DNA of 64,000 nucleotides from Patescibacteria group bacterium (GTDB taxonomy: Bacteria > Patescibacteriota > Patescibacteriia > Magasanikbacterales > GWA2-37-8): positions 3,841-67,840 of the forward strand of contig JAQTYG010000002.1 in NCBI GenBank assembly GCA_028688375.1, given 5' to 3'. Positions 5,711 through 55,571 of this stretch are shown one piece after another (positions within the stretch are counted from its first letter, which is position 1; each line of letters starts with the position of its first letter). Under the pieces are notes generated by a model. That model was not told where the DNA came from and made no database searches. It worked only from the letters and a program-made list of their open reading frames with translations. A program made the translations under genes and the position numbers.

Positions 5711-5718
5711 TTATATTG

Positions 5719-5790
5719 TGCCCCCAGAGAGGATCGAACTCCCATCTTCAGGTTCGAAGCCTGATATTCTATCCATTGAACTATAGGGGC
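5719..5790 (-). tRNA. tRNA-Arg (anticodon TCG)
   Basis: reverse complement folds as cloverleaf: acceptor GCCCCTA/TGGGGGC, anticodon stem TCAGG/CCTGA, loop CTTCGAA, T-arm GGGAG-TTCGATC-CTCTC. Confidence 0.7.
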
Positions 5791-6076: not shown

Positions 6077-6079
6077 ATG

Positions 6080-6152
6080 TGGGCTGCCAGGGATTCGGAC
6101 CCTGGACCTTGTCCTTAAGAGGGACCTGCTCTACCAGCTGAGCTAGCAGCCC
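6080..6152 (-). tRNA. tRNA-Lys (anticodon CTT)
   Basis: reverse complement GGGCTGC...GCAGCCCA, D-arm GCTCAGCTGGTAGAGC, anticodon loop CTCTTAA, T-arm CAGGG-TCCGAAT-CCCTG. Confidence 0.75.
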
Positions 6153-7571: not shown

Positions 7572-7784
7572 TTACTTTTTGCCTCTTTTAGCGGTGCGGG
7601 CCGTTTTACGGCTGACGCTCAGAACCTCACGTCCTTTATAGGTACCGCAAAATCCGCAAGCGCGATGCGGCCTGATCGGTTTTTCGCACTTGGGGCAAGA
7701 ATTAATGGTCGTAGCGGAGAGCGCGAAGTGCGCTGCACGGCGGCGTTTGTGTGACGAAGTCCGTCGATGGCCTGGTAAACCCAT
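7572..7784 (-). CDS. rpmF: 50S ribosomal protein L32
   Basis: zinc-ribbon CPKC...CGFCGTYKGREV and basic N-terminus typical of bL32. Confidence 0.75.
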   Translation of the reverse strand: MGLPGHRRTSSHKRRRAAHFALSATTINSCPKCEKPIRPHRACGFCGTYKGREVLSVSRKTARTAKRGKK

Positions 7785-7895
7785 ATATTTATTTTAATGA
7801 TTGATAAGTAAAATCGGCTGTAATTATACTATAAAATTAGCCTTTTGGCAAGAGAGGTTTTTTTGGCTAAAAATGGCGGCCGGGCAGAGGGGGGG

Positions 7896-7924
7896 TTGAC
7901 AAAAAGGTAAAAGTGTGCTATTAT
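7896..7924 (+). promoter_or_regulatory. sigma70-type promoter (TTGACA-17-TATTAT, extended -10 TG)
   Basis: ttgacaaaaaggtaaaagtgtgctattat; near-identical copy at 17287-17315. Confidence 0.6.
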
Positions 7925-8170
7925 ATTCAGTTAACAATTCAGACCGCCTGTTTCTGGAGAGAGTCGGGCGGACAAAAATGGCTTTAATTAGCCAAAGTTA
8001 TTGAAAAACTTCTCGTTTTACGGGGGTTTTCGCACCTTAAAATGGTTTTAGCGCTAAATAAAGGGTTGTCGTGTAGAGATAGTATCTGATTGATCTGTCT
8101 ATAGAAAAATAAATTAACACCAACCTTTTATTGAGCGCTAAACCCCCAACCAACCACCAAGGAGGAATCC

Positions 8171-8602
8171 ATGGCAAACGAGGATACCAACAAGTTCGCG
8201 TGCGTGGCTTGCGGTCGCCCCATCAACTCCGACGCGGCGAAGATCGCGGCGCGAATCCCGGCGCGCGACGTCATCGTCGCGAAGCTGGGGAGGGCCGACC
8301 TCACGGTCGCGGACCTCGGCAAGTTCGTCGTGTGCGGGGGCTGCGGCGTCATCGCCGACCGCAAGGGGGCCAAGACGGCCGCCTTCACGGCCGCGCTCGC
8401 CGCCGTCCGCATGGACGAGGAGGAGCGACGAGCCCTCGCGGCGGCGAGGCAGGAGGCGCAGGAGGCGGTGAAGTCGAGGATCGGCGACCTCTTCGGAGTC
8501 TCTATCGAGGAGACCGAGGAGGCCACGGTCACGACGATCACGCCGACGGCCGCGAGAAAGGTCAAGGAAGGGGGGCGGAAGAGGGTCCGCAAGGCCTCGT
8601 AG
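8171..8602 (+). CDS. GC-rich (about 68%) ORFan, putative zinc-ribbon protein
   Basis: strong SD ccaaggaggaatccATG; two CxxC pairs (CVAC, CGGC); Ala/Arg/Glu-rich; GC content far above flanking genes. Confidence 0.5.
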   Translation: MANEDTNKFACVACGRPINSDAAKIAARIPARDVIVAKLGRADLTVADLGKFVVCGGCGVIADRKGAKTAAFTAALAAVRMDEEERRALAAARQEAQEAVKSRIGDLFGVSIEETEEATVTTITPTAARKVKEGGRKRVRKAS

Positions 8603-9307
8603 GCCACCGCCGCAACTGTGTGAGTCGTTCTTTTTCTAGAAAGAGAGGTCTGAATGCACTGGCCCGCGCTGTAGGTAACAGATAAGCGAGTGCCGGCATG
8701 GCCCCAACGGATCCGTCATCCGTCCGGTAAAATGACGAAGGCGACGCCGAGCGCATCAGTAACTCGGCACCCCAATTGCGTTTCTGAAGCGAATCGTTTC
8801 GGAGACACAACAGCGGTTCACAGCGCGAACAAAGGAGGTTCAATTTGAGCTGATGAGAAAGCGACGCGCAGCAAAAAAAGCGCGATGGCAACAATCCAAA
8901 TTCTCACCTATCAGGTGAACCAAGGAGGGGAAACCTCCCCGGAAGCCGAACCTAAGCAAATTCGGCAGTTCGTTTTCGTCGCCCATCATCCGCGGCGCTA
9001 GTGAGGGGGTCCTGTGCGACCTCCATGCCTCGCCGAAGCTACGGCTTGCGGCTGAACAGGCAGTGCGCGGCGCGCGGATCTGGGGTGCGCCGACGGCGGG
9101 TGGACATCGGTTGTTCTCCCGCCCTCAACAATCACGGAAGTGAAGAAAGGAGAGGTGGACCGGATGAATGCATTCGGGTTTACCTAGAGTGGCATGGGCC
9201 ACGCCACCGGCCAAAAACCGGGATGCGCTGCGAGGTCGTCTCGTCTGACCCGCCCGGCGCGCGGCGAACTAACTAAATGCTCTTTCGAGGTAGTCGTTCG
9301 AGTTCGA

Positions 9308-9350
9308 GGCCGGTCACAACTGCGTGACCGGCCGCTTTTATTTATTTGGC
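9308..9350 (+). terminator. intrinsic terminator closing GC-rich island
   Basis: perfect hairpin ggccggtcac-aactgc-gtgaccggcc followed by gcttttatttattt. Confidence 0.75.
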
Positions 9351-9361
9351 AAAGATACACC

Positions 9362-9390
9362 TTGACATTTTTTAAAATTGTATATATAAT
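9362..9390 (+). promoter_or_regulatory. consensus sigma70 promoter (TTGACA-17-TATAAT)
   Basis: ttgacattttttaaaattgtatatataat, followed by SD agaggaggagggag and ATG at 9443. Confidence 0.65.
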
Positions 9391-9442
9391 GGTGTTTAAA
9401 AATTAAACCCGCTACGAGCGGAAAAAAGAGGAGGAGGGAGAA

Positions 9443-9715
9443 ATGCGTTCTTTGAAAAGGCTGGGTCGTTTCATCTTGGTTTGGGAATCGGCTTTAGCCG
9501 GCGTGGTCTTCCTGGCCATCGCCGTTACCGCGTTATTCGATCCTTCGCTCGTGAAAACGGTGGAATCGCTCGATTGCTTCATCAAGGCGAAAATCATCGC
9601 CGCCTATTGGTTGCCGTCCTGGAAAACGGATGAAATAATCGTTGCGGCGTCGTTTATTTCTGGCGCGTTCAACATGGCGATCGTCCTGGCCTCAGCTATT
9701 CGGACGCGCCGATGA
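9443..9715 (+). CDS. small membrane protein
   Basis: 90 aa, two predicted TM helices, strong SD; stop overlaps next start (ATGA). Confidence 0.5.
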   Translation: MRSLKRLGRFILVWESALAGVVFLAIAVTALFDPSLVKTVESLDCFIKAKIIAAYWLPSWKTDEIIVAASFISGAFNMAIVLASAIRTRR

Positions 9716-10084: not shown

Positions 10085-11101
10085 ATGTTGAAGATTGAAA
10101 CAAAATTTGAAATGAGCAACAGCTGGTTGAAGGAAAATGTCAGCCGGCCGCCTTTTTGCCAGTCGTTTGAATGGGAAGAAATATTGTCGCGTGAAGGCAA
10201 AGATGTTGAACGCTTGGCCGTATTTGATGACGAAAAACCCGTGGCTATGGCACTGGTGGAATATCATAAATTGCCGTTCGGCTGGCGGTATGCTTTTTGT
10301 CCGAAAGGACCAATTACAGCTCGCAGTTCACAGCCCACAGTTCACAAAATTTACGAAGTTCTGGCCGGTTATTTTAAGAATAAAAAATGTATATTCTTTC
10401 GTTTCGAACCGATGGCGAACTGGGAACTGGGAACTGAGAACTGTGAACTTCGCAAAACCGTCGACATTAATCCGCGGGCGACGATGATTTTAGATTTGCG
10501 GCGTACGCCGGATGAACTACTCGCCGGTATGCATCAAAAGACACGATACAACATTAACTTGGCGCAGAAAAAAGATTTACGGGTAAGCGATATTAAAGAT
10601 GCCGACCTGTTCATGACTTTAATGAAAGCCACCGGTCAGCGCGATAAATTTCGTCTGCACCAGGTTAAACATTATCATGAAATAATTTTTTCTCCGTTGG
10701 CGCACCAGTTAACTGTTTTTTACGGACCACGCCCGATTGCCACAGCGATCTTTGCCGGCTTTGGCGATACTTTCACTTACGTTTTTGGCGCGTCCGATTA
10801 TGACCACCGCTCGCTAATGGCGCCGTATTTAATTCAATGGGAGGGGATTAAAATGGGGCAAAGATACGGCTATAGATATTATGATTTTTTTGGCATAGCG
10901 CCACAAAAAGGAATAAAGAGTAAGGAACAAGGAATAAATGATTATGAATATGACGTAAAACACCAATATGCCGGGGTGACAAGGTTTAAGCAGGGGTTTG
11001 GCGGCGCGTACCATGAAGACCCGGGAACATTTGATTTGATTATTTCACCGTGGAAGTATAGAGTATATAATTGGTTGCGGAGGATAAGAAGAATGATTTA
11101 G
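10085..11101 (+). CDS. FemAB-family peptidoglycan interpeptide-bridge aminoacyltransferase
   Basis: 338 aa, FemAB-like C-terminal region (YGYRYYDFFGIAP), acyltransferase fold pattern; contains in-frame oligonucleotide repeats. Confidence 0.6.
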   Translation: MLKIETKFEMSNSWLKENVSRPPFCQSFEWEEILSREGKDVERLAVFDDEKPVAMALVEYHKLPFGWRYAFCPKGPITARSSQPTVHKIYEVLAGYFKNKKCIFFRFEPMANWELGTENCELRKTVDINPRATMILDLRRTPDELLAGMHQKTRYNINLAQKKDLRVSDIKDADLFMTLMKATGQRDKFRLHQVKHYHEIIFSPLAHQLTVFYGPRPIATAIFAGFGDTFTYVFGASDYDHRSLMAPYLIQWEGIKMGQRYGYRYYDFFGIAPQKGIKSKEQGINDYEYDVKHQYAGVTRFKQGFGGAYHEDPGTFDLIISPWKYRVYNWLRRIRRMI

Positions 11102-11172
11102 TCCTTGTAGTTTAATGGATAAAATACCTCCCTCCGAAGGAGGTGATGCGCGTTCGATTCGCGCCGAGGGCA
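11101..11172 (+). tRNA. tRNA-Arg (anticodon CCG)
   Basis: acceptor GTCCTTG/CGAGGGC (two G-U), anticodon stem CCTCC/GGAGG, loop CTCCGAA, T-arm GCGCG-TTCGATT-CGCGC; weak D-stem. Confidence 0.55.
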
Positions 11173-11186
11173 CATTTAATTTTTTT

Positions 11187-17052: not shown

Positions 17053-17160
17053 TGTCATTCCGAGCGAAGTCCCGCGGAGCGGGATGAAGTCGAGGAATCC
17101 CTTCGGCACCTTGTCATTCCCGCGAAGGCGGGAACCTGCCTGCCGGTAGGCAGGTCCAGT
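17053..17160. repeat. two tandem copies of small hairpin repeat family (GTCATYCYGAGCG...GGAATCCCTTCGGC / TTGTCATTCCCGCGAAGGCGGGAA)
   Basis: related copies at 30866-30893, 31400-31455, 33894-33920, 34059-34099. Confidence 0.6.
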
Positions 17161-17286: not shown

Positions 17287-17315
17287 TTGACAAAAAGGCA
17301 AAAATGTGCTATACT
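17287..17315 (+). promoter_or_regulatory. sigma70 promoter, near-duplicate of 7896-7924
   Basis: ttgacaaaaaggcaaaaatgtgctatact. Confidence 0.6.
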
Positions 17316-17410
17316 ATATTATTCTTTTACAAACTCCAGTCCCGCATGGTGCGGGACGGAAAACCCGGCCGCGGGGAACAGCGGCAGAAAGAAAACAGGA
17401 GGAAAGGTCC

Positions 17411-18136
17411 ATGACAAACCATGGCACGGTCCCCCAGAATCAGTTCGAAGAGTTCCTGGCCGCCCTCATCGTGGCTCTACCGCAGATGACGCCGGAGCAG
17501 ATGCAGAAGTTCATCCGGCTCTCGACCAAGACCAAGAGGAAGAAGCTCCGTGAGCTCTTCGGCACGACCGACACCGAGGTTTGGCGCGAGGAGTGGACGA
17601 AGTTCTACCTCGAGGTCTTCAACCTCGCGGTGGACCTGACGAACGTCGTCCTGCCCACCGAGGTGGAGGAGTTCGCCTGGCTGACGGTTCTGGCCAAGGA
17701 GCTCGGCGACACGCCGCTCAACACGGCCATGGTCGCTGCCAGGAAGCTCTTCAAGGGCAAGGTCTGGCAGTACTACGACGACCTGGACAAGGATGTCACC
17801 GTCAACGACCGCGACCTGAAGAACGGCTCCTACGCCATCCGCATCCGGGCCAGGGTGGAGGCCGACGAGGAGAACAAGGGCCTCTCGGCCAACCAGATCG
17901 CCGAGCGTAAGCTCGTGACGATGACGCTCCTGGAGCGCATCGTGCTGGAGCTGTTCTACTTCTGGAAGACCGGGAAGCACCTGGACATCCAGAACGTGAC
18001 GCTCTGCAGCGGCTCGCGCAGCTCGGATGGCCGCGTCCCGCGCTGCGACTTGTTTGGCGCTGGCCACTTCTTCGTCGACGACTGCCGCCCCGGCTGCGCC
18101 CGCGTCTACTTGCGGGCTCGTGTCGCAGTTTTGTAA
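17411..18136 (+). CDS. DGR target protein (GC-rich, about 64% GC), variable region at C-terminus
   Basis: SD aggaggaaagg then ATG at 17411; last about 42 codons form the VR copy of the TR/VR pair. Confidence 0.6.
   Translation: MTNHGTVPQNQFEEFLAALIVALPQMTPEQMQKFIRLSTKTKRKKLRELFGTTDTEVWREEWTKFYLEVFNLAVDLTNVVLPTEVEEFAWLTVLAKELGDTPLNTAMVAARKLFKGKVWQYYDDLDKDVTVNDRDLKNGSYAIRIRARVEADEENKGLSANQIAERKLVTMTLLERIVLELFYFWKTGKHLDIQNVTLCSGSRSSDGRVPRCDLFGAGHFFVDDCRPGCARVYLRARVAVL
18008..18131 (+). repeat. DGR variable repeat (VR)
   Basis: about 124-bp imperfect direct repeat of 18405-18528; differences concentrated where the other copy has adenine. Confidence 0.7.
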
Positions 18137-18169
18137 CTCGTTCCTTTAACTCTTATCTCACCGGTTCGT

Positions 18170-18215
18170 TCTCTCGCCCGTTTGTGTGTCTTGCACAGAC
18201 GGGCGTTTTCTTTTA
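18170..18215 (+). terminator. hairpin/terminator downstream of VR
   Basis: gcccgtttgtgtgtcttgcacagacgggc followed by gttttctttt. Confidence 0.55.
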
Positions 18216-18404
18216 AAATACTTTTGGCTAATACAACCAATCTCACGCGATGAGGTAATGGTTTGCCACAAATTGAAACTGCTTAATCGATTTTAGAGAG
18301 TATTCGTGAAATGTCGCGATGGCTCCAAACAACGCCTGCTTCGCGGGTCAACGCAGATAATTTTGTTAAAGATTATCGGTGATTTTTGATGAAATCGGTT
18401 AATA

Positions 18405-18528
18405 AGCGGCTCGCGCAACTCGGATGGCGACGTCCCGCGCTGCGACTTGGGTGGCGATGGCCACTTCCACGTCTACGGCTGCAGCCCCGACAACGCCAAC
18501 GACAACTTGCGGGCTCGTGTCGAAGTTT
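18405..18528 (+). repeat. DGR template repeat (TR)
   Basis: adenine-rich copy (AAC codons gac aac gcc aac gac aac in target frame); followed by hairpin aaaaaggagcttg-cgt-caagctcctttt. Confidence 0.7.
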
Positions 18529-18544
18529 CAAAAAGGAGCTTGCG

Positions 18545-18826
18545 TCAAGCTCCTTTTGTTTCCAAGTATCTTATCCAGCCGCTTGCCATTTTGGAAATTT
18601 CTACCAACTGGTTTTCAATATCCAGATATTTATTCGTGTTGATTATATCCAGTTCATTTTCCAGCCGAATCAGCCGCTTTAATATTTCTATTTCAATTTT
18701 TATTTTTCGCAAAATCGGAATTTTTGTCGCGCCGCCGAGCAGGGCGGCTTCAATGGAAAAGCCGAGAATGTCCAGGCCAAACTGTTCTATTTTCAAATGC
18801 AATCCGTGTCTGTCTTTTTTCGGCAC
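18545..18826 (-). CDS. Avd-like four-helix-bundle protein (accessory variability determinant / 23S rRNA IVS-protein family), opposite strand
   Basis: C-terminal RLENELDIINTNKYLDIENQLVEISKMASGWIRYL matches the NELETQL...KMLNGLIRSL signature; only 93 aa. Confidence 0.45.
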   Translation of the reverse strand: MPKKDRHGLHLKIEQFGLDILGFSIEAALLGGATKIPILRKIKIEIEILKRLIRLENELDIINTNKYLDIENQLVEISKMASGWIRYLETKGA

Positions 18827-18878
18827 GTTTTTGCCGAGGACATAAATATTCCTGTATAACTCCGTTATCTTATGAACA

Positions 18879-19898
18879 ATGGGGATAGAAATTGCGTCGG
18901 GGGGGGGGTTGCTTGATTGTATCGGCCATAATTTTTTTGATAAAATTATTTCTTTTGGTAATTTATTTCGTGCCTGGCGCGAATTTAAACGCGGGAAGAC
19001 GGGTAAAAACGACGTCAGAAAATTTTATTATTCATTGGAAGATAATTTATTTGAGTTGCGACGTGATTTATTAGAGCACCGCTACCAACCGGACAAGTAT
19101 GGCTTTTTCTATGTCCGCGACCCTAAATTGCGGCCGATTCACAAGGCCTCGGTCCGCGACCGGGTTTTGTTTCAAGCCGTGTTCCGTTTATTGTATCATA
19201 TTTTTGACCGGCATTTTATTTTTGATTCATATTCTTGCCGATTCGGCAAAGGCACGCATGCCGGCGTGTGGCGTTTGGAGCAATTCGTCCGACGGGCGAG
19301 CGCGAATTATTCAAGGCCGGTATTTGCCCTAAAGTGCGATGTGCAAAAATTCTTTTATAGCATTGACCATGATATTTTATTTGATTTGTTAAGGCGAAAG
19401 GTTGGCGACCCCAACACGCTATGGTTGATTGACAAAATAATAGACAGTTTTGAAATTGAACCGGGCAAGGGTCTGCCTCTCGGCAACGTAACCAGCCAGT
19501 TGTTTGCTAATATTTATTTGAATGAATTGGATCAATGGGTGAAACATGTTTTGCGGCGAAAATATTATTTGCGGTATTGCGATGATTTTGTGATTTTGGG
19601 GGATAGTGTCGCTGATTTACGAGCGTTGATTGAACCGGTTAATGATTTTTTAAAAGAAAAATTAAAATTGAACTTGCATCCGCGGAAAGTGGAAATCAGA
19701 AAATTATCGCAGGGGATTGATTTTCTGGGATATGTTGTTTTGTCCCGTCATATTGTACTGCGAACGAAAACAAAAAAGAGAATGTTTAGAAAGGTGGCAA
19801 ATTGTCCGTCAAGCCAGTCGTTGCAGTCGTATTTGGGAATGTTGAAACACGGCAATAATTTCAATCTGTATAATAAGATAAAGCGTTTATTTGGTTAA
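18879..19898 (+). CDS. DGR-type reverse transcriptase
   Basis: RT motif C RYCDDFVILG (YxDD) and DGR-diagnostic LGNVTSQLFANIYLNELD; 339 aa. Confidence 0.85.
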   Translation: MGIEIASGGGLLDCIGHNFFDKIISFGNLFRAWREFKRGKTGKNDVRKFYYSLEDNLFELRRDLLEHRYQPDKYGFFYVRDPKLRPIHKASVRDRVLFQAVFRLLYHIFDRHFIFDSYSCRFGKGTHAGVWRLEQFVRRASANYSRPVFALKCDVQKFFYSIDHDILFDLLRRKVGDPNTLWLIDKIIDSFEIEPGKGLPLGNVTSQLFANIYLNELDQWVKHVLRRKYYLRYCDDFVILGDSVADLRALIEPVNDFLKEKLKLNLHPRKVEIRKLSQGIDFLGYVVLSRHIVLRTKTKKRMFRKVANCPSSQSLQSYLGMLKHGNNFNLYNKIKRLFG

Positions 19899-27332: not shown

Positions 27333-29672
27333 TTGCATATGCGCGAAAATTTTGGCGCGATATCTAGCGGAAGAGAAATGTTTTTCGCACGAAAAGCCGA
27401 GCATGACAGCGTGAAAGAAACGGAGAGAATAAAAGAAATAGTATTGGACTATTGTTCTGACACAGGTATTTTGCGAGAAGAGAAAGGCCGGCGTATTTGG
27501 GACATCGCGGCCTTCAAGGATATTGATTTTAGGCATGCTGGTGCGAAAGAAGAAGTGCCGGTCAATAAACATGATTTCTTCCGGGCACTATGCACAGAGT
27601 CGGGCGTTTCTTTGGCGGATTATCAGTCGGCCGAAAAGAATGAGAAATTGAAAGATCGGCCGATTTTTTATTATCCCAGCAGTATCGACGATGCGATGTC
27701 GCCAAAGAAAATAGCGGCGAACGAGAGTTATATTGGTTATTGGGATTTAGGAACGGTCGTCAAGGATTGGTCCGTTCCGGTGGAACTTCCGTCAGGAGAA
27801 AATGTCGGACTAAATGAGTTGTTTATAACCAAAATGATTTTTGGCAAATTACACGGGCGCCGTGATGAAAAGGGCAATCTAATAGTAGATGACCCGGAAA
27901 CTAGCGAACCGGTGAAGTTTACTGCAAAAATATTTGACAGGAACTTTGGCGGCGTAGGGAAAAGAGGAGAAGGAGGAAATACCAGCTTTTCAACTCCAAT
28001 CGGATATTTGCAGAAAAATGCTCCACATATAATGGAAAGTGGCCTGTTGTTGTCGAGCGACTTTCGTTCATTAAGTGAGAAAAGCGGTAATATCTATCGG
28101 CATCGTTATTCGGTTGCGGCCAACGGCATCGCCTATATCGGCGGCGCAAAATATAGTCTTGGCGCAGATTTCGACAGTCGCAGACAACCTGAAAAACGAG
28201 GCGCTTATTTTGTTGTCGAGCTTGGGAAAGGTCTAGCGGGTATTATTGAAAAGAGTAGGGGAGGGTATGAATCCGTAACCCATGTATTTAAATTGAAAAA
28301 CGAAGAAGAAATCGAAAAAATTCGTGCCAACAGTGGCGAGAAGAAAAAACGTGGTGACGTGGTTTTTAAAAAAAATGACATAGAAATTTTGCCATATGGG
28401 AAGGCCGATTCGAATCGTCGTTTTAGCGGCGAATCAGGAAAGGAATATAGCAAACGCATGCGTTTGCTGGAGAACTGTGAGAGTACGGAAAAAATAGTCA
28501 ATGATATCTCTCTTAATACCGGCATCAGCGCGCATCGCGACTTGTCATGGCACGAACAAGAATGGCTGGCCGCTTCCGCCGGAAATATTGAAGGCATGAG
28601 CGGTGAAATCATAGCGCAGGCCAAGAAATTTGGCATTGATTTTCTGAGGTCTTTTTTATCGTGCGAATTTGGTATGGATTCAGGCAGAGCGATTATTGAT
28701 ATCGCCAAAAAGATTCCACCGGAAGTGTCAAAGAAATTATTTTACAAATATGGCGAATTTGTAAACGCGGCTGAAGAGGCAGCAGAAGATCTGGAAAATC
28801 AGTATGGAGTGGCGCTGACGGAAGTACAAAAAAATAGGATAATGGAAAAAATGTTGCGCCGCGGTCGTGACCTGTTGCTTAATTACGCCTCGAGAGCCGA
28901 AGCGGGAACACATGGACAAACTGCACAAGCAGAGGCGTTGCAAATGCTCAATGACCTGGAAAGAGTTCGGTCGGATATGGTATTATTCTCTGCCGTATTT
29001 AAGGAAGCCAATATTCCGTTAGAACAAATGAAAGATACGGAAGTCTCGTCTGTGAACGCGCGGTACATGAATAGGCCGGATAAAAAGCGAATGATGGAAT
29101 TAGCGGAAATGAATTATGGCAAAAGCCGAGTCGGTCAAGAAATCGTAAAGCCGTCGCTCGCCAAGGCGATGGAAGACCGAACCAATACATTCTATCTGCT
29201 TAAAAAAGACGACGAAGTAATAGGCGGATTTCGCATTCAAGACGCAAAGGATAAATATTATTTTGGTTCATTCAACATGGACCCGAATGCCAAGGCGAGC
29301 GGCCTAGGCAATGCCATGCTGGAAAAAGTTATTGCGGATTTGTCGCGAAAAAAACCGGTGGAAGCCGTCGCAGAAGCGGAAAAACCGGTCATTTCTTATT
29401 ATGTAAACAAATTGGGTTTCAGAATAGCTGAATTTTTACCGGATATGGCCGGCACAGGAGTGGACGGATTTAAAATAGTAAAGGACGGACAAAAAATTGA
29501 AGAGATTGAATCAAAAAAATATACGGATAAAAATAAGTTTATCCGCGACGTGCAGAAAAATATCGCCAACGGCGGGATTATCGTCGGTTATCGATATGAT
29601 GAGAAAGCCAAAGTATACGAAGTGAGTTATGGCAGAGTAAAAGAGCCGGTCCAAAAGCGCATGGCAGCCTAA
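27333..29672 (+). CDS. large hypothetical protein with C-terminal GNAT-like acetyltransferase domain
   Basis: track ORF 27240 start lies in GC-rich hairpins; likely start MRENFG at 27333; C-terminal FRIQDA...GLGNAMLEKVIADL...YYVNKLGFRIAEF resembles GNAT motifs A/B. Confidence 0.45.
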   Translation: MHMRENFGAISSGREMFFARKAEHDSVKETERIKEIVLDYCSDTGILREEKGRRIWDIAAFKDIDFRHAGAKEEVPVNKHDFFRALCTESGVSLADYQSAEKNEKLKDRPIFYYPSSIDDAMSPKKIAANESYIGYWDLGTVVKDWSVPVELPSGENVGLNELFITKMIFGKLHGRRDEKGNLIVDDPETSEPVKFTAKIFDRNFGGVGKRGEGGNTSFSTPIGYLQKNAPHIMESGLLLSSDFRSLSEKSGNIYRHRYSVAANGIAYIGGAKYSLGADFDSRRQPEKRGAYFVVELGKGLAGIIEKSRGGYESVTHVFKLKNEEEIEKIRANSGEKKKRGDVVFKKNDIEILPYGKADSNRRFSGESGKEYSKRMRLLENCESTEKIVNDISLNTGISAHRDLSWHEQEWLAASAGNIEGMSGEIIAQAKKFGIDFLRSFLSCEFGMDSGRAIIDIAKKIPPEVSKKLFYKYGEFVNAAEEAAEDLENQYGVALTEVQKNRIMEKMLRRGRDLLLNYASRAEAGTHGQTAQAEALQMLNDLERVRSDMVLFSAVFKEANIPLEQMKDTEVSSVNARYMNRPDKKRMMELAEMNYGKSRVGQEIVKPSLAKAMEDRTNTFYLLKKDDEVIGGFRIQDAKDKYYFGSFNMDPNAKASGLGNAMLEKVIADLSRKKPVEAVAEAEKPVISYYVNKLGFRIAEFLPDMAGTGVDGFKIVKDGQKIEEIESKKYTDKNKFIRDVQKNIANGGIIVGYRYDEKAKVYEVSYGRVKEPVQKRMAA

Positions 29673-30475
29673 GTTGTTGCGCTCATATCATACATACTTT
29701 TCGGTTTCAGTTCGTTCGGAAATTTCGTTGTTGCCCACAAATACTCAAATAAACTGCGAAACATTTCATAAATAATTTTATCTTCGATTATCACCCCGAT
29801 GAGGGATTTACTGGATAGAGTGGTAAAAGAAATTTTGCCGGCGTATATTTGCAGAAGAGTGGAAGAAAAACTTATCGGGGCGGCGGTCAAAAATTTAAAC
29901 TTGGTCAGCTCGGAATCATAGTCGGTAGTCATGTTGCGGTTAAAAGCGGAATCATTTGAAATGATCCGCTTTATTATTTTTTTTGCTTTTCTTTCTTTCA
30001 AATACAGATCGTTTAATTTGCTGAATTCATGAATAGTAAACTCAACGTCGCCCATGGTCAGAACCTCGCCTGTCTGCGCCAGAGTATCCCACCATACTTT
30101 TTTGATACCGTCTTCGCCTTCAAAAAACCGCACACCCGGCCGGCCGGCGGCGAGGTTGAAAGAGGAAAGGAGGTTGGGCAAAACGCCGTCAATGGCGTTT
30201 TTAGCCGAAAGAGCCGCCTGTTCGCGCTCTTCCACAAAGTCGCGCAGTTTATTGGGGTGGCTGGCAATAAAGCCGGCCACTTTGCCCTCTGGTTCGTTCT
30301 TTTGGACCAGCCCCTTGGCCTCCAAGTCGGCCAATACCTTGTATGCCAAACTACGCTTTAGGCCTGATTCAGCCGCTATTTGAGTGGCTTTTTGCTCGCC
30401 TTTTTGCAATAAAAGCTCATAGATTAGCGCTTCTTTGGCCGAAAGGCCGGTTTGAGTGAGAATGTTTTCGTACAT
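29669..30475 (-). CDS. TrmB-family transcriptional regulator
   Basis: N-terminal winged HTH LSAKEALIYELLLQKGEQKATQIAAESGLKRSLAYKVLADLEAKGLV; 268 aa. Confidence 0.6.
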   Translation of the reverse strand: MYENILTQTGLSAKEALIYELLLQKGEQKATQIAAESGLKRSLAYKVLADLEAKGLVQKNEPEGKVAGFIASHPNKLRDFVEEREQAALSAKNAIDGVLPNLLSSFNLAAGRPGVRFFEGEDGIKKVWWDTLAQTGEVLTMGDVEFTIHEFSKLNDLYLKERKAKKIIKRIISNDSAFNRNMTTDYDSELTKFKFLTAAPISFSSTLLQIYAGKISFTTLSSKSLIGVIIEDKIIYEMFRSLFEYLWATTKFPNELKPKSMYDMSATT

Positions 30476-30639: not shown

Positions 30640-30668
30640 TTGACATTTCTATCTAGATATGGTATACT
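30640..30668 (+). promoter_or_regulatory. consensus-like sigma70 promoter (TTGACA-17-TATACT)
   Basis: ttgacatttctatctagatatggtatact. Confidence 0.55.
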
Positions 30669-30674
30669 GTATTC

Positions 30675-30990
30675 ATCAAGATCGAAAAAGGACTTGATGC
30701 AATCGCACCTTACAGAAGACGGCTGATGACAGAACTCGCTTCAGGAGAGAAGAAGCGGGCGGACACAAAGCCGGATTCACTAAACGGGACGGCGACGGTT
30801 TGCCTCTGGATAGCGGAGAGATATAGATAGAGGCGAAACGTTGCTCCCTGTGGAGTGAAAAAAGTTGTCATTCTGAGCGAAGCGAAGAATCTTTACAATA
30901 TATACGATTACCGTTGGAGAGAGCGGTGGCCAATTTACAAGAATAACAAGAGTTCTCTCCATTTAAAGAGAACTCTTTTTGTTTCGGTAA
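30675..30990 (+). ncRNA. candidate about 310-nt non-coding transcript (promoter to intrinsic terminator), function unknown
   Basis: no credible ORF; ends at hairpin aagagttctct-ccattta-aagagaactctt followed by tttgttt (30945-30990); contains one copy of the hairpin repeat family. Confidence 0.25.
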
Positions 30991-31554
30991 AGGAGAGACG
31001 GGAAAACGGCCTATCAATAACAAATAGTAATTGTGGCCAAACATTTACCCTCTCCTTTACCGGAGTAAAATCCGGTTCGTTCATTGGTTCTTTATAACAT
31101 GATTTCATATTGCCAGTTGAGACAGGAGAGAAATCTCCATCGGCGACATGAAATATGTCTGACTTACTTTTTACCTATTATATAGGTGGAAAGATCGGAT
31201 GCGGTTGATGGGCAGATTTGCGGGAACGCGAACTGTTCCACCGGCATCCGACTACTCGCTTGTCAGAGCGCGTAGTACCGAGTGCAACCCGTCCTAATAC
31301 TTCGCAAGAAGAATTGGGACAGGGACAATCGGCGCTACAGAGAGAGTGGCGACGAAGTACTTTGACAATTTACTTTCAGAAGACAGCAACAGGCCGCTGT
31401 GTCATCCTGAGCGGATCCGCCGACAAGCGGAGAAGTCGAAGGATCCCTTCGGCGCAATCGTTGTTGGTGTTTTTTGAAGGCGCCATCACAAGGTGTGATG
31501 GCGCAAAAACAACAAACCCCGGCGCCGTGGGTGAAACGGGCGAGTGAGGGAAAA

Positions 31555-32742
31555 ATGAAAGTTGTCGTGTGCGGACCGCCGCACAGCGGCAAGTCCGTGT
31601 TTCTCACGGGTCTCGTCGGTCAGTTGGACCGACGGGACTACTACCTTTTTCGGGCCTGCCCGGATGGCGAAGGGAGCTGGACGTATGCCCATGAGGGCAA
31701 CGCGGCTCTCCGCCGCAAGGGCGGGTTCACCACGGAATTCGTGGAGTGGTGCGTCCGCACTCTCCACAACAACAACATGGCTCCCTGTGTCCTGGTGGAT
31801 GTGGGGGGACGAATGACGGCCGAGAACCGGCGGATCATGGCGGAGTGCGACTTCGCTATCATCCTCGCCGGCGATCCGGCCGCCATCGGCGAGTGGCGGA
31901 ACTTCTGCTCCGAGTGTGGCTTGGCAGTAATCGCCGAGCTGCATTCGGACTACCGCGGCCGAAAGGACGTGGTCGAATGTGAGAGTCCGGTGGTGCGCGG
32001 CAGCGTGCATCACCTCGAACGGGGGGAAGACGTCACGAGTCGGCCCGCGATAGAAGCGGTGGGTCGCCTCATTAACCGGCTGCTCGACGAGCAGCGCAGG
32101 GAGAGGGAGAAAAAAATGGACAATATCGTGAACGCCATCACCGTCCTGATCGCCGAGCTGGCCGTGGCCCTCGGCAAGCAGAAGGTCAAGAAGACCTTGC
32201 CGAACGGCAAGGTCATCGAGACCATCGAATGGCTGGGCGAGGACCTCCGGTCCTTGTCCCGGCTCCTGCACTCCAAGTCGGCGGAGTACGCCGGCAAGGA
32301 CGTGAGGATCGACGGGGGAGCTCCGGGCTTCCTCGTTGCCGCCCTGGTGCACGAGTTGCACCCGGCGGACGTGTCGGTGAACTCACCGGATGGGTTCATT
32401 CCCATCCGGTGCCAGTCGCCCGAAGGCGACGGGCGCGGGGATAACCTGCGGTTCCGCGTCGAGGACCGGGGCGATTTCACCCTGGTTACCGCGGAGCAGC
32501 AGGATCCGTCCCGCCCCCTCGACCCGGCCAAGCTGGGCGAGATTGCCCCACCCGACGTGCCGATGGGGACCATCGTGGTCCTCAACGGCAGGATGCCCCA
32601 CTGGCTTTTGGCCAGTCTGGGCATGAGCTACCACGGCCGGACCAAGGCCGTGGCGGCCAACCAGCCGGGGCTGGGGGCGACGGTGTTCATGACCCACTCG
32701 GCTTCGGTCGAGTTGGGCTCGATGATCACGGTTGCGCTCTAG
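31555..32742 (+). CDS. GC-rich (about 66%) P-loop NTPase-domain protein, unknown family
   Basis: ATG after SD gagggaaaaATG; Walker A VVCGPPHSGKSV at residues 4-15; about 395 aa; preceded by about 350-nt structured leader. Confidence 0.5.
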   Translation: MKVVVCGPPHSGKSVFLTGLVGQLDRRDYYLFRACPDGEGSWTYAHEGNAALRRKGGFTTEFVEWCVRTLHNNNMAPCVLVDVGGRMTAENRRIMAECDFAIILAGDPAAIGEWRNFCSECGLAVIAELHSDYRGRKDVVECESPVVRGSVHHLERGEDVTSRPAIEAVGRLINRLLDEQRREREKKMDNIVNAITVLIAELAVALGKQKVKKTLPNGKVIETIEWLGEDLRSLSRLLHSKSAEYAGKDVRIDGGAPGFLVAALVHELHPADVSVNSPDGFIPIRCQSPEGDGRGDNLRFRVEDRGDFTLVTAEQQDPSRPLDPAKLGEIAPPDVPMGTIVVLNGRMPHWLLASLGMSYHGRTKAVAANQPGLGATVFMTHSASVELGSMITVAL

Positions 32743-32966
32743 GCGATACGAAAAAAATCTCACACCCGTGAGTTGCGGCAAATCCTAACCGCGTAAAACG
32801 ACAGGTCGACTCGCATCCGTAACTGCGCGCCAGTCCGAGTAAGGCGTGAATCTCGGAAACACTCGGAGGCCGACATCGCACATGTCGGCCCTCCAATTAC
32901 CGCACCAAATGCTTTGGCGCGGTTGAGGAGAAAACAAACGGGTCAAAGTGACCCAAAGGAGAGGCA

Positions 32967-33773
32967 ATGGAAAACAATATCAACAGCGACACTACCACCA
33001 ACTCCGACAACGACCGCGACATCGTCGCGGAAGCCGCCGAGCGGTACGCCGAAGGGCGCCAGCAAGCCATCGAGGTCTGCCGCGTCGTGGCGGAGGCGGC
33101 GAGGGTCCGGCGCGTTAAGGATGACGTGCCGGAATGCGTCGCGGGCGCTGCCCGCGACTTCCTGGCGAAGGCGACGGCGCCGGCCCGACACGAGTCCCGT
33201 GTCGCGGCCACCGTCGCGTGCGCGCGCGCATGGATTCGCGCCTTCGGGCGCGAGTCCATTGAGGAGTACGAGGACATCTGCGTCCTCATTCTCCTCATCG
33301 CCGACCTGTTCGGGGTCGGCGGTCCGAACGGGTTGGGTGGCGCCACCAGGCGCCACCCGGCTTTCACCGCCCTTGGAAAGGGGCGGTGGCAGGCCAGTGA
33401 CGGCAGCGCCTACCGCGCCGCCGTCGTCGGCGCCGCGGCCGAGCTTTTCAACAAGCTCGGCTCCGTCGTCGTCGACGCCGAGGGGTCCATCAGGACCCAC
33501 TCGGCGGTGATCGACAGCGACTGGGCGGTGGAGGCCATCGGCGAGCCCGAGTTCGCCGAGGCGTTCTTGCGCCACCTCCTGCTCGTCCTCGCCGGTCCAG
33601 AGAAAATCTGGAGCGTGTTCGACACGGGCAACTGGTGGGGGATTGAGCTCCCCCAGGGCGAGGACCGGCGCACGGCCATCGCGGCCGTTTCCGCCTCATT
33701 CAACGACGCGCATCGCATGATGTGCGTCGGAAAGGAGGATGTTACCGTGCCGGCCGACGAGACCGGCTGGTAG
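32967..33773 (+). CDS. GC-rich (about 67%) hypothetical protein
   Basis: 268 aa, SD aaaggagaggcaATG, Ala/Arg/Glu-rich, no recognisable motif. Confidence 0.45.
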   Translation: MENNINSDTTTNSDNDRDIVAEAAERYAEGRQQAIEVCRVVAEAARVRRVKDDVPECVAGAARDFLAKATAPARHESRVAATVACARAWIRAFGRESIEEYEDICVLILLIADLFGVGGPNGLGGATRRHPAFTALGKGRWQASDGSAYRAAVVGAAAELFNKLGSVVVDAEGSIRTHSAVIDSDWAVEAIGEPEFAEAFLRHLLLVLAGPEKIWSVFDTGNWWGIELPQGEDRRTAIAAVSASFNDAHRMMCVGKEDVTVPADETGW

Positions 33774-33893
33774 ACAACACACGCGCACCGTAACTGTGCT
33801 AAACACAACCCGAGTTGAACGTTACGGGTTCAGCTTTATCACTCGGACGGGCGAATTGCACATTCGCCCCTCCAATTACCATAATATTATTCT

Positions 33894-34099
33894 GGATTCC
33901 CGCCTACGCGGGAATGACAAAATAAAACTATGGTTGAGGAGGAAAACCCGGAAGATTTCCATTCAAAGGAATCTCTCCTCCCGCGAAACGGGAATCGAAA
34001 GGGTTTAATCTGAAATTAAAAAACCCCGGCGTAAAGCCGAGGTTTTTTAATTTATTATTGCCGAAGGGATCCTTCCCCGCCCAAGGCGGGTCAGGATGA
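33894..34099. repeat. cluster of hairpin-repeat-family copies downstream of GC island
   Basis: ggattcccgcctacgcgggaatgacaa (33894-33920) and gccgaagggatccttccccgcccaaggcgggtcaggatgac (34059-34099), inverse orientation relative to 17053-17160 copies. Confidence 0.55.
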
Positions 34100-34197
34100 C
34101 CCCCCACCACTTTTAATTTCTAACACGCTAATAAATAAAGCCCTGTTATCTAACAGGGCTTTTTGTGAACTGAGCTTGTTGCAAAAGTGGTGGGGGG

Positions 34198-55203: not shown

Positions 55204-55323
55204 TTAACAATAAGCAATTAACAATAAGCAAATTGTTTAAAATAAATTTAGATGAATTAAAGAGAAGTAAAATTCCGTTTCGACAAACAGAATTAAGAAG
55301 TTGCGCTAGCGCGCAATAATTTT

Positions 55324-55407
55324 GGTGCGGACGGAGGGACTCGAACCCTCAAGGCCGAAGCCATACGCTTCTGAGACGTACGCGTATACCAGTTCCGCCA
55401 CGTCCGC
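55324..55407 (-). tRNA. tRNA-Leu (anticodon CAG), CCA encoded
   Basis: acceptor GCGGACG/CGTCCGC, anticodon loop CTCAGAA, long variable arm TGGCTTCGGCC, T-arm GAGGG-TTCGAGT-CCCTC, 3' ACCA. Confidence 0.7.
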
Positions 55408-55560: not shown

Positions 55561-55571
55561 TTACGTTCTTA

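Follow-up and report, generated by a model that had tools for sequence, protein, structure and literature searches.

The zinc-ribbon gene PHD72_01480 belongs to a resident, lineage-specific transcription unit of Magasanikbacteria (Patescibacteria), in which a reading frame of extreme GC content is embedded in a genome of much lower GC. The unit occupies positions 7896-9343 on the + strand of the window (the whole 64,000-nt stretch of DNA analysed here), and comprises a promoter, an AT-rich leader, a Shine-Dalgarno (SD) sequence, a 143-aa ORF, a non-coding tail, and a terminator. The explanation that best accounts for these features, to which we assign a probability of roughly 0.55, is a resident unit whose GC content is held by a force acting at present, with control exerted at the level of the leader and mRNA, and with the gene belonging to a class set apart by its codons. 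The features of the unit are as follows:

7896-7924, + strand: sigma-70-type promoter, TTGACA and TATTAT separated by 17 nt (11/12 consensus), with an extended -10 TG
7944-7971, + strand: leader element 1, a CCGCC…GGGCGG hairpin whose loop motif, GGAGAGAG, lies at 7956-7963
8031-8157, + strand: leader element 2, a long hairpin with arms at 8044-8068 and 8121-8145
8159-8165, + strand: Shine-Dalgarno sequence AAGGAGG, 5 nt before the ATG at 8171
8171-8602, + strand: zinc-ribbon gene PHD72_01480, 143 aa, with GC 69.4%, GC3 0.92, and a period-3 GC signal
8603-9307, + strand: non-coding tail, 58% GC, with no period-3 signal
8643-8674, + strand: SD-like GAGAGG and the mini-ORF ATG CAC TGG CCC GCG CTG TAG (MHWPAL and stop)
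8742-8787, + strand: conserved 3' element, the hairpin GCCGAG-loop-CUCGGC (8746-8768) followed by CCCAAUUGCGUUUCUGA
8832-8839, + strand: strong SD-like site AAGGAGGT within the tail
9147-9187, + strand: second SD-like site AAGGAGAGG with a 7-codon mini-ORF (MNAFGFT and stop)
9308-9343, + strand: intrinsic terminator, a 10-bp stem (9308-9333; 8 of its pairs G-C) closed by a 6-nt loop, then a T-run
9362-9390: next promoter, driving the downstream genes

This architecture agrees with an earlier sequence-only reading of the same DNA, which had described a near-consensus promoter, a 240-nt AT-rich leader (about 240 nt, at 38.5% GC), a strong SD, a 143-aa ORF with two CxxC pairs (C11xxC14 and C55xxC58), a tail of about 700 nt lacking a convincing ORF (there is no period-3 GC signal anywhere in 8603-9343), and a terminator hairpin. 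The view of the unit as self-contained and monocistronic likewise stands. Transcription is predicted to start at ∼7931. The promoter sequence is identical and equivalently positioned in L003, L004, L005, L006, L009, L011, and L012, and in L004, L005, and L012 the unit ends in an equivalent terminator; since similar consensus promoters occur elsewhere in the window, the promoter is generic for this genome. Neighboring genes are rnc, nusB, rpmF, small membrane-protein genes, and femAB. No direct repeats bounding the unit and no mobility genes nearby were found, the 6 kb to each side, in the window as in L004 and L005, contain no recombinase, and the nearest tRNA genes lie at least 1.7 kb from the unit, away from its borders.

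The compositional contrast is sharp and largely a property of the coding sequence. The sequence-only reading had placed 8131-9300 at about 68% GC; the jump is real and far beyond the noise of 400-nt windows (mean 48.1% GC, sd 6.1%; the region peaks at 71%), but that figure is too high, and the interval has 62.3% GC in a window of 48%. By part, the leader has 38.5%, the ORF 69.4%, and the tail 58.3% (53.9% over 8603-8990 and 64% over 8990-9300). Along the unit, GC3 is 0.75-0.90 in codons 1-20 and 0.88-1.00 in later codons, and falls to 0.45-0.75 just past the stop. Across the units, GC is 0.32-0.45 in the leader and 0.52-0.60 in the tail, with the intergenic DNA of the window at 0.38. High GC is thus confined mainly to the reading frame. 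The GC3 of the ORF (0.92) compares with a window median of 0.53, and just four of the 57 ORFs in the window exceed 0.8 (8171-8602, 17411-18136, 31555-32742, and 32967-33773). Codon usage is inverted relative to core genes: AAG 94% vs. 19%, GAG 90% vs. 23%, CTC 63% vs. 10%, and ATC 97% vs. 36%. At third positions G and C are equally favored (0.47 and 0.45), and GC1, GC2, and the amino acid composition are also shifted (Ala 16% vs. 8% in core genes). A particular mRNA structure is not supported as the reason for the GC content of the ORF, which folds no better than its synonymous-codon shuffles (z from -2.5 to +0.5; -3.2 for the control gene NusB).

In the predicted protein, a CxxC…CxxC zinc ribbon at the N terminus is followed by a long helix spanning residues 56-108 and by a C-terminal tail that is basic and disordered, although the AF2 model is weak (pLDDT 60). 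It is the product of a real, fast-evolving coding gene, as evidenced by the GC3 and period-3 signals, by four cysteines conserved across the family (alignment of 8 rows, representing 7 proteins), and by substitutions in a close pair, where 7 synonymous and 4 non-synonymous codon differences denote purifying selection. Among relatives, amino acid identity is about 28-40%, over partial length. Judging from its zinc ribbon and basic tail, the protein probably binds nucleic acids. When 1.84 billion representative proteins were scanned in full with HMMER, the ORF gave 3 matches, with no homologue outside its own locus, and a profile search of 5.8 billion clusters returned 5 matches to the family; all matches with assembled upstream DNA sit behind the conserved leader. 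The description of the gene as an ORFan was nearly right: about eight family members are known, all of them at this locus. Family and domain collections gave no assignment: the best match in Pfam scored 14.4 bits against a cut-off of 27, and that in NCBIfam 16 against 55; E-values were 0.07 or worse in PHROGs and 0.17 or worse in a PDB sequence search; PADLOC gave no match to the window protein, and two relatives matched only at E ≥ 0.012; and Foldseek of the AF2 model against the PDB gave a best match of E = 3. Kinship with an 87-aa zinc-ribbon ORF located beside an AAA-Csx3 gene in L016 was rejected (hhalign probability 1.3%).

Using the leader-hairpin pattern, we identified seven related Magasanikbacteria contigs; matches in L007, L008, and L010 were discarded as chance metagenome matches inside unrelated coding DNA. 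All seven carry the unit, and rpmF adjoins it wherever that flank was assembled. Six retain rpmF or nusB upstream; every contig that reaches upstream has rpmF, and most also have nusB and rnc, at 77-86% amino acid identity. In the two contigs that reach far enough downstream (L004 and L005), two small membrane-protein genes and femAB follow at 69-70% identity. Overall, flanking proteins are 69-86% identical between relatives and the leader DNA is 79-91% identical; the four-fold degenerate sites of the flanking genes, at 31-53% identity, are saturated. Even so, the GC3 of the ORF is 0.88-0.96 in every sampled lineage, in hosts with a GC3 of 0.33-0.54. Because GC3 stays high in every lineage despite this saturation, the contrast is actively maintained, and these sequence comparisons indicate that the high GC is no relic of import and that some force is now acting on the zinc-ribbon gene. 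The recent foreign origin proposed earlier is consequently not upheld, as the unit is present in 7/7 relatives with undecayed composition, lacks repeats, mobility genes, and off-locus homologues, and is shown by its homologues to be a conserved resident gene of the lineage. The other earlier suggestion, a selective reason for high GC such as a structured RNA, fares better: a maintained contrast is broadly supported, while structured RNA is not supported for the ORF (by the shuffle z-scores) and only partly so for the tail, where one short proximal block is conserved.

The leader contains two distinct RNA elements, and the measures of covariation given for both derive from only 6-8 related sequences. 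In five relatives, the element-1 hairpin bears the loop UGAGAGAG, and downstream of it lies an intrinsic terminator with a 5' arm (CUCUCUC) complementary to that loop; the terminator is clear in L004, L005, L011, L012, and L013 (e.g., CUCUCU-CAAAU-AGAGAG-UUUUUU). Compensatory changes occur in 6/11 pairs of element 1, and 86% of cells are paired, compared with 29-52% in slid controls. The invariant GAGAGAG loop, whose stem covaries, could pair with the 5' arm of the terminator in a mutually exclusive alternative structure, and the element in these relatives is a candidate terminator/antiterminator attenuator. The window copy has a degenerate terminator half, of which only a weak AAAAC/GUUUU stem is left, and in the L003 and L006 lineages element 1 is missing altogether. 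Since neither the window, which has no convincing terminator, nor these two lineages retain the full arrangement, attenuation is not essential to the unit.

Element 2 is a hairpin of ∼110 nt that stops 14 nt short of the ribosome-binding site. It has 36 pairs, 13 of them with compensatory changes, and 95.8% of cells are paired, compared with 31-46% in slid controls; none of 500 shuffles reaches the observed values, and one G·U pair is invariant. A covariance model of this element (R1) scores 134 bits on the + strand and 38 bits on the - strand, and detects one copy per locus. The G·U pairs, together with the strand-specific model score, indicate that element 2 is an RNA feature. Within the whole window only tRNAs pass the gathering thresholds of Rfam 15; between 7780 and 9450 the best match falls short, with 22.8 bits where 67.5 are required, and nothing in Rfam matches the unit in L002, L004, L005, or L012. 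Viral contigs scanned with the leader and 3' motifs gave 0 matches. The ∼110-nt covarying hairpin, the GAGAGAG-loop attenuator (found also at AAA-Csx3 loci of at least two Patescibacteria), and the 3' hairpin element described below are three candidate RNA motifs absent from Rfam, and they come from a phylum in which almost nothing is known of gene regulation.

The tail differs from the leader in being mostly particular to each genome. Its length among the units ranges from 249 to 946 nt, and in the window only 8742-8787 (46 nt) is common to the tail of any relative, with the remaining ∼500 nt unique to this genome. The possibility that it represents a decayed GC3-rich pseudogene was rejected, as no period-3 signal occurs in any of five tails. 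It is predicted to be highly structured, with nearly equal values for the two strands (folding z of -4.3 for the sense and -3.6 for the antisense). Compensatory changes are present in the tail helices H2-H4 among L002, L004, L005, and L012; the 3' helices were compared by eye, and the 3' elements of L002, the window, and island 3 are too divergent for a correct MAFFT alignment. A 22-mer related to the 3' element, CCGAGTAACGCGTGAATCTCGG (L004, L005, and L012), is also found at 32835-32856 of the window with 1 mismatch, where 0 occurrences are expected by chance. The sense strands of five tails contain 20 SD-like hexamers in all and the antisense strands 2, compared with 2.9 ± 2.0 in shuffles. 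At the position equivalent to 8643-8674, relatives have GGAGG followed by ATG CCC TTT xxx stop, and they also have a strong SD-like site 231-352 nt past the stop codon, a distance comparable to that of 8832-8839. These sites precede only ORFs of 2-26 codons, whose peptides are not conserved.

Two further loci in the window also have GC-rich genes. The first, the AAA-Csx3 island (30640-34060), consists of GC-rich ORFs (GC3 0.83-0.88) behind an AT-rich promoter. Like the zinc-ribbon unit, it has a leader with GGAGAGA-loop hairpins, one of them with a terminator, as well as the 3' hairpin CCGAGTAAGGCGTGAATCTCGG and a hairpin-CCAATT motif; unlike the unit, it encodes unrelated proteins and lacks the long leader hairpin of model R1. 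The element-1 attenuator design recurs at position 30916 of the window and at position 4300 of L016, and island 3 looks like a tandem of two units, each an ORF with a 3' element. AAA-Csx3 occurs widely and is in part mobile, and in three other Patescibacteria contigs its genes are GC-rich relative to AT-rich flanks. The closest homologue (L018) is found in a context of uniformly about 50% GC with another gene order, and this difference in genomic context marks the gene as mobile. No CRISPR array was found near the Csx3 gene. The second locus is a diversity-generating retroelement (DGR) at 17.3-19.9 kb, with its template repeat at 18405-18533 and its variable repeat at 18008-18136. The zinc-ribbon ORF was rejected as a DGR target, as 7780-9460 has no similarity to the template repeat; the ORF also shows no adenine depletion, since A exceeds T on its sense strand.

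These loci raise the broader idea that Patescibacteria keep a few accessory genes (the zinc-ribbon gene, the AAA-Csx3 ring nuclease, and perhaps the DGR target) in a separate regime of composition and codon usage, with the composition itself being functional. We consider this general form unlikely. The genes concerned have a GC3 of 0.8-0.96 inside genomes with a GC3 of 0.2-0.55, and the zinc-ribbon and AAA-Csx3 loci are tied by a 5' RNA element, the GAGAGAG-loop terminator/antiterminator, and a 3' one, the CCGAG-hairpin/CCAAUU element. Literature searches turned up no account of GC-rich gene classes in Patescibacteria. If such a regime exists, these mRNAs could stay translatable and nuclease-resistant while A/U-rich core transcripts or A/U-decoding tRNAs are attacked, and the zinc-ribbon protein could be an RNA-binding regulator of the class.

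Several other explanations for the GC contrast were weighed against a resident unit with presently maintained GC. An artefact, whether chimeric assembly or bin contamination joining AT-rich to GC-rich DNA, is conceivable in principle for a metagenome-assembled genome, yet its likelihood is negligible: the independent Logan contig L001 is identical over 7888-8970, spanning the leader/ORF junction, and the same junction between AT-rich leader and GC-rich ORF appears in seven other assemblies from different samples. Recent horizontal acquisition, by which a foreign high-GC gene landed behind a host promoter and has yet to ameliorate, would fit the GC3 of 0.92 against a window median of 0.53, codon usage like that of high-GC organisms, and a protein almost without relatives. 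It is nonetheless highly improbable given the presence of the unit in 7/7 related contigs (beside rpmF where assembled), the 79-91% DNA identity of the leader among them, a GC3 of at least 0.88 in every lineage despite saturated flanking synonymous sites, the lack of off-locus homologues among 1.84 billion representatives, and the failure to find flanking repeats or mobility genes. A further, integron-like explanation, in which the segment from the leader hairpin to the terminator is swapped repeatedly, by site-specific or homologous recombination, from a GC-rich Patescibacteria pool, with the hairpin or the 3' element as the recombination site, draws on the sharp fall in conservation past the hairpin (leader 79-91%, ORFs ∼30-40%, tails mostly unrelated), on the matching 3' hairpin that trails the unrelated GC-rich gene AAA-Csx3, on the tandem appearance of island 3, and on the mobility of AAA-Csx3, whose nearest homologue is in another genomic context. 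Every cassette at the site, however, encodes a single protein family known nowhere else, no integrase or flanking repeats accompany it, the G·U pairs and strand-specific score indicate that the hairpin is an RNA feature, and viral contigs gave no matches. Reading the sequence by eye, we saw no attC-type core sites (RYYYAAC … GTTRRRY), although the conserved 3' hairpin is present. Such cassette exchange is quite unlikely.

GC-biased gene conversion carries more weight, though we still regard it as an unlikely source of the contrast. Here, alleles under diversifying selection would be exchanged via conserved flanks, and GC-biased repair of heteroduplexes would raise GC without selection on GC itself. 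A regional bias at the nucleotide level would fit the shift of GC1, GC2, amino acids, and the tail (0.52-0.60 vs. 0.38 in intergenic DNA) toward GC, and further points in its favor are the very fast divergence of the protein between conserved flanks, the equal use of G and C at third positions (0.47 and 0.45), and the fast-evolving nature of the other GC-rich genes in the window (the DGR target and the defence-associated ring nuclease). Against it, the edges of high GC3 match the start and stop codons with no decay with distance, the neutral-looking tail reaches only 0.52-0.60 and not 0.9, and the close pair shows purifying rather than diversifying selection. The magnitude reported for biased conversion in bacteria is also modest relative to a shift from 0.5 to 0.92. 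An alternative of another kind is that the ∼700-nt tail is the functional product, a large structured non-coding RNA, with the ORF secondary. The tail does fold better than shuffles (z = -4.3), has no coding signal, contains strand-specific SD-like motifs, and includes a conserved proximal block with compensatory changes in H2-H4 (L002, L004, L005, and L012), but it shares only 46 nt with any relative, ranges in length from 249 to 946 nt, folds almost equally well in antisense (z = -3.6), and has no Rfam match, and the ORF is clearly under protein-level constraint. This alternative is accordingly improbable.

Under the favored explanation, a resident unit with presently maintained GC, the zinc-ribbon gene would be strongly transcribed, with control exerted after the start of transcription. 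In most relatives, the GAGAGAG loop would pair with the 5' arm of the downstream terminator as a terminator/antiterminator switch whose terminator half has degenerated in the window copy. Next to the ribosome-binding site, the long hairpin may act as a binding or processing site, and could bind the basic zinc-ribbon protein itself, leading to autoregulation. The G/C-ending codons, the GC-rich tail, and the SD-like sites would together yield a stable, ribosome-decorated mRNA, read by the set of tRNAs for G/C-ending codons. The gene may in this way join a small class with the AAA-Csx3 island, through common 5' and 3' RNA elements, and with the DGR target, through GC-rich codons only; the class would be expressed under rules unlike those of the core genome.

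Recent transfer is the routine reading of a compositional island; here, an extreme contrast in GC3 and codon usage is a stable, inherited trait of one resident gene. The locus therefore offers a clean natural test case for what keeps local GC content in bacteria, with the holding force being either selection on codons or mRNA or a strongly biased conversion. In practice, such native genes would be lost by mistake if Patescibacteria genome bins were screened for islands or contamination on the basis of GC.

In its sharp deviation from the host in GC and codon usage, and in a protein almost without relatives, the unit resembles a horizontally acquired genomic island; it differs in being present in 7/7 relatives without mobility genes, flanking repeats, or donor homologues, and in a composition that has not decayed despite saturation. 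Element 1 is reminiscent of terminator/antiterminator attenuators to which RNA-binding proteins attach, such as the PyrR type with its binding loop UCCAGAGAGG: in both, a first hairpin displays a purine-rich, invariant loop whose complement lies in the 5' arm of an intrinsic terminator further downstream. However, neither the Rfam PyrR model nor any other Rfam model matches, the downstream genes are unrelated to pyrimidine synthesis, and the terminator of the window copy is degenerate. At the level of codons, a parallel may be drawn with the bldA/TTA codon system of Streptomyces, a codon-defined regulon: in both cases, a few genes use codons rare in their genome, which could tie their translation to particular tRNAs, although the bldA regulon depends on a single codon and the zinc-ribbon gene has its whole codon table inverted.

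The remaining similarities concern untranslated regions of single mRNAs. The icaR mRNA of Staphylococcus aureus has a long functional 3' UTR, in which an anti-SD motif pairs with its own SD (PMC3868564). As in the unit, this is a 3' UTR of several hundred nucleotides with short conserved motifs that belongs to a single gene, but no conserved 5'-3' pairing emerged here, where duplex prediction was uninformative. The STAB-SD mRNA stabilisers of Bacillus thuringiensis cry genes (PMC4113751) are likewise strong SD-like sequences that serve no real gene, as are those enriched in strand-specific fashion in the untranslated part of the transcript here; STAB-SD lies in the 5' UTR, while the SD-like sites of the unit, putative stabilisers, lie in the 3' tail, some of them before mini-ORFs of 2-7 codons. 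In layout, the unit also resembles the hbs mRNA of B. subtilis, whose product is a small basic DNA-binding protein; its 5' UTR is structured, its strong SD blocks RNase J1, and its 5' and 3' UTRs interact (PMC5737220). In both cases, a small basic protein is encoded monocistronically behind a consensus promoter and a long, structured leader that ends next to a very strong SD, and the 3' region is structured. The two have no sequence or protein homology, the tail of the unit is far longer (250-950 nt), and hbs has no compositional contrast; by analogy with hbs, an mRNA-stabilising role is plausible.

The transcription unit at 7896-9350 contains every feature that the sequence-only reading had listed for it: promoter, leader, Shine-Dalgarno (SD) sequence, a 143-aa ORF with two CxxC pairs, tail, and terminator.

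Elements of the unit, read from the sequence except for the leader hairpin, which was modelled from related loci
7896-7924, + strand: promoter, TTGACA-17-TATTAT, with a TG extension
8031-8157, + strand: leader element 2, a ∼110-nt hairpin (stems within 8044-8145), conserved in 8 sequences
5 nt upstream of the ATG at 8171, + strand: ribosome-binding site, AAGGAGG
8171-8602, + strand: zinc-ribbon ORF, 143 aa, with C11xxC14 and C55xxC58
9308-9333 (stem), + strand: terminator, with a T-run

The mean GC content of the window is 48.1% (sd 6.1%, 400-nt windows) and rises to 71% in this region, such that the GC jump is real, although the earlier figure of about 68% was too high for 8131-9300, where 62.3% was measured. 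By part, GC is 69.4% in the ORF, 58.3% in the tail, and 38.5% in the leader. At ORF codon positions 1, 2, and 3 it is 0.64, 0.52, and 0.92, respectively, and in the frame plot the third-position value is 0.9-1.0 exactly from start to stop codon and absent beyond. Because this signal is bounded by the start and stop codons, the ORF is truly coding and the tail is non-coding, as the description of a tail without a convincing ORF had anticipated. An independent Logan contig is identical to the window across 7888-8970, which rules out an assembly artefact at the junctions.

In the databases, the only annotation of the zinc-ribbon protein is "hypothetical protein", from a Patescibacteria MAG, and a word-indexed search of 5.8 billion clusters returned no further match. 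A full HMMER scan (1.84 billion representatives) located two remote relatives, whose contigs (L002 and L003) carry the same leader hairpin ahead of a GC-rich ORF; L003, which reaches further upstream, also has the same promoter. Scanning DNA for a pattern built from the arms of the hairpin, we recovered L004-L006, which are Magasanikbacteria MAG contigs, and three true members from metagenomes (L009, L011, and L012). Three other metagenome matches were chance matches, and the viral contigs scanned with this pattern gave none. With one more member obtained by profile search, the family comprises ∼8 sequences, and those with assembled upstream DNA all sit behind the same leader; the ORFan label is nearly right.

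Gene order around the unit is shared among these loci: rpmF is present on every contig that extends upstream, nusB and rnc on most, and downstream L004 and L005 have, as in the window, femAB and a pair of genes for small membrane proteins. Compared with their window counterparts, L32, NusB, and RNase III are 77-86% identical and FemAB is 69-70% identical; the zinc-ribbon ORF reaches only 28-40%, over partial length, and was not detected in L004 by tblastn. The close pair L002/L006 differs by seven synonymous and four non-synonymous codons over 101 codons, a sign that purifying selection acts on a genuine protein. The transcription unit is resident and conserved, and its protein gene is real and fast-evolving.

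In the AlphaFold2 model of this protein (five-member alignment), which is of low confidence (pLDDT 60), a helix is inserted in the zinc ribbon, residues 56-108 form a long helix, and the basic tail is disordered. Searches by family, defence system, PDB sequence, and fold returned no match for it; the zinc ribbon and basic tail suggest that it may bind nucleic acid. In the 240-aa relative P0003 (L003, 246-968) the CxxC…CxxC zinc-ribbon module occurs twice in tandem, pointing to an internal duplication.

Covariation among the related sequences shows that the leader holds conserved RNA structures, which have no match to an Rfam family. For element 2, RNAalifold on 8 sequences predicts 36 pairs, of which 13 show compensatory double changes and one is an invariant G·U pair; 95.8% of cells are paired, versus 31-46% with partners slid, and none of 500 shuffles matches the observed paired cells, double-change pairs or cells, or covariation score. 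Its covariance model finds one copy per locus at 129-136 bits in the sense orientation versus 30-38 bits antisense, a difference that identifies the element as an RNA feature. In five relatives, element 2 is preceded by a hairpin (element 1) with an invariant loop, UGAGAGAG, and compensatory changes at 6 of 11 pairs; after this hairpin comes an intrinsic terminator with a 5' arm (CUCUCUC) complementary to the loop. The window keeps the hairpin (7944-7971, loop GGAGAGAG), but its terminator is reduced to a weak remnant, and element 1 is absent from the L003 and L006 leaders. The same design recurs at 30916, in the 880-nt leader of a second GC-rich island (AAA-Csx3), and also precedes AAA-Csx3 in L016, an unrelated contig from Patescibacteria (GGAGAGAG-loop hairpin and terminator, ∼4300). 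The GAGAGAG attenuator and the RBS-adjacent hairpin could together exert control after initiation, and such control may be autoregulatory.

A recent foreign origin had been proposed for the compositional discontinuity. Comparison of the window with L004 or L005 gives 31-53% identity at four-fold degenerate sites in the flanking genes, i.e., essential saturation, and host GC3 ranges from 0.33 to 0.54; the zinc-ribbon ORF nevertheless keeps its GC3 at 0.88-0.96 in all lineages where the ORF is complete. Import before the lineages split should have been followed by drift to host composition, so the contrast is no relic, and repeated import would require a donor pool, of which none is visible in the HMMER scan or profile search. 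Recent transfer is therefore rejected, and exchange of cassettes at this site is less likely, given that the family exists nowhere outside this locus. The GC and codon contrast is actively maintained.

ORF GC3 is 0.75-0.90 in codons 1-20 and 0.88-1.00 thereafter, and same-phase GC just past the stop codon is 0.45-0.75. Codon choice is inverted relative to core genes (AAG 94% vs 19%; GAG 90% vs 23%; CTC 63% vs 10%; ATC 97% vs 36%), with G as frequent as C at third positions. A serious rival is biased gene conversion at a locus prone to recombination, which would fit both the shifted amino-acid composition (Ala 16% vs 8% in core genes) and the GC enrichment of the tails (0.52-0.60, with leaders at 0.32-0.45 and ordinary intergenic DNA at 0.38). 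That the elevation of GC3 stops at the limits of the reading frame favours selection at the level of codons or mRNA.

Within 2.5 kb of the unit there are three tRNA genes: tRNA-Arg(TCG) at 5718-5790, tRNA-Lys(CTT) at 6079-6152, and tRNA-Arg(CCG) at 11101-11173. CTT reads AAG (rare in core genes, but used for 94% of lysines in the GC-rich ORF family) and CCG reads CGG, both G-ending; TCG reads CGA and CGG. Elsewhere, tandem TACGAAAG-like repeats (55413-55567, periods 16-42 nt) adjoin tRNA-Leu(CAG) at 55323-55407.

The tail is non-coding, with no period-3 GC signal in any of five examples (L004, 249 nt; window, 741 nt; L005, 748 nt; L012, 946 nt; L002, at least 748 nt). A proximal block of ∼150-190 nt is common to L004, L005, and L012; it opens with GGAGG, then ATG CCC TTT xxx stop, and closes with a GCCGAG-loop-CUCGGC hairpin followed by YYAAUU. 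Compared by eye, its helices have compensatory changes in H2 (GCCCG/CGGGC to GCACG/CGUGC), H3 (CAGGG/CCCUG to UGAGG/CCUCA and GGGGG/CCCCC), and H4 (UCCAC/GUGGA to GAAGC/GCUUC). The window keeps only the closing hairpin part (8742-8787), and its other ∼500 nt match nothing; the 22-mer form that the hairpin takes in L004, L005, and L012 recurs with one mismatch at 32835-32856, directly after the AAA-Csx3 ORF (0 expected by chance). A 125-nt block common to L002 (837-961) and L003 (987-1101) at 86% identity (…GAGCGGGGTTCCATCGGGCCCATATGCGGGCCGGGAGA…), absent from the window, L004, L005, and L012 tails, is a predicted second, lineage-restricted 3' element. Strong SD-like hexamers number 20 sense versus 2 antisense in the tails (shuffles, 2.9 ± 2.0), and only tiny, non-conserved ORFs come after them. 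The suggestion that a structured RNA underlies the high GC was sustained only in part: relative to shuffles, window tail folding has z = -4.3 sense and -3.6 antisense, and ORF folding is not above that of its synonymous shuffles. The GC-rich codon set and SD-decorated tail may stabilise the mRNA or channel translation.

Among 57 window ORFs (median GC3 0.53), four exceed 0.8: the zinc-ribbon ORF, 17411-18136, 31555-32742, and 32967-33773. The last three belong to the following loci.

Features of the other GC-rich loci
17287-19898: complete diversity-generating retroelement (DGR)
17287-17315: DGR consensus promoter
17411-18136: DGR target gene, GC-rich, GC3 0.86
18008-18136: DGR variable repeat
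18405-18533: DGR template repeat
18879-19898: DGR reverse transcriptase, AT-rich (RVT_1, E = 2e-21)
30640-34060: AAA-Csx3 island, GC-rich, divergent from a trmB-like gene (29669-30475)
30744, 30916, 31339: GGAGAGA-loop hairpins in the AAA-Csx3 leader
31555-32742: AAA-Csx3 ring-nuclease-type protein (PADLOC AAA-Csx3, E = 3e-56)
32967-33773: 268-aa ORF of the AAA-Csx3 island, GC3 0.88

Mismatches between the DGR repeats fall at template adenines in 15 of 22 cases, and no obvious Avd gene was seen there. The 30916 hairpin is paired with a matching terminator, a hairpin-CTCCAATTACC element follows each of the two island ORFs, and the window has no CRISPR array. The REP-like repeat GTCATYCYGAGCGRA is found once shortly before the DGR (17054-17068) and twice within the AAA-Csx3 leader (30867-30881 and 31401-31415), three copies where 0.06 are expected, with a related inverted copy, noted by eye, near 34060-34100.

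In other Patescibacteria contigs, AAA-Csx3 genes (L014, 6001-7221; L015, 935-2113; L016, 6001-7200) have a GC3 of 0.66-0.77 beside AT-rich core genes at 0.20-0.45; in L014 and L016 they lie downstream of a trmB-like gene (gap ∼2 kb), as in the window. The closest homologue (72% identity) is on a contig that is uniformly 50% GC and whose genes are arranged differently. GC enrichment that is maintained locally in particular accessory genes thus seems to be a recurring property of Patescibacteria, and we found no paper describing it.

Searches of Rfam, Pfam, NCBIfam, PHROGs, and PADLOC place the unit in none of their families, and of the four features that define an island acquired by horizontal transfer it lacks three. 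Among known systems it is similar to strongly expressed mRNAs of small proteins in which structured UTRs go together with stabilisation by ribosomes, such as B. subtilis hbs (PMC5737220) and STAB-SD elements (PMC4113751). It is also similar to functional 3' UTRs of great length (PMC3868564) and to terminator/antiterminator leaders that depend on a protein; these are resemblances, and membership cannot be claimed. Retaining the earlier term monocistronic, we regard the unit as an mRNA of that kind, probably regulated, whose RNA motifs are new and whose compositional regime is unusual.
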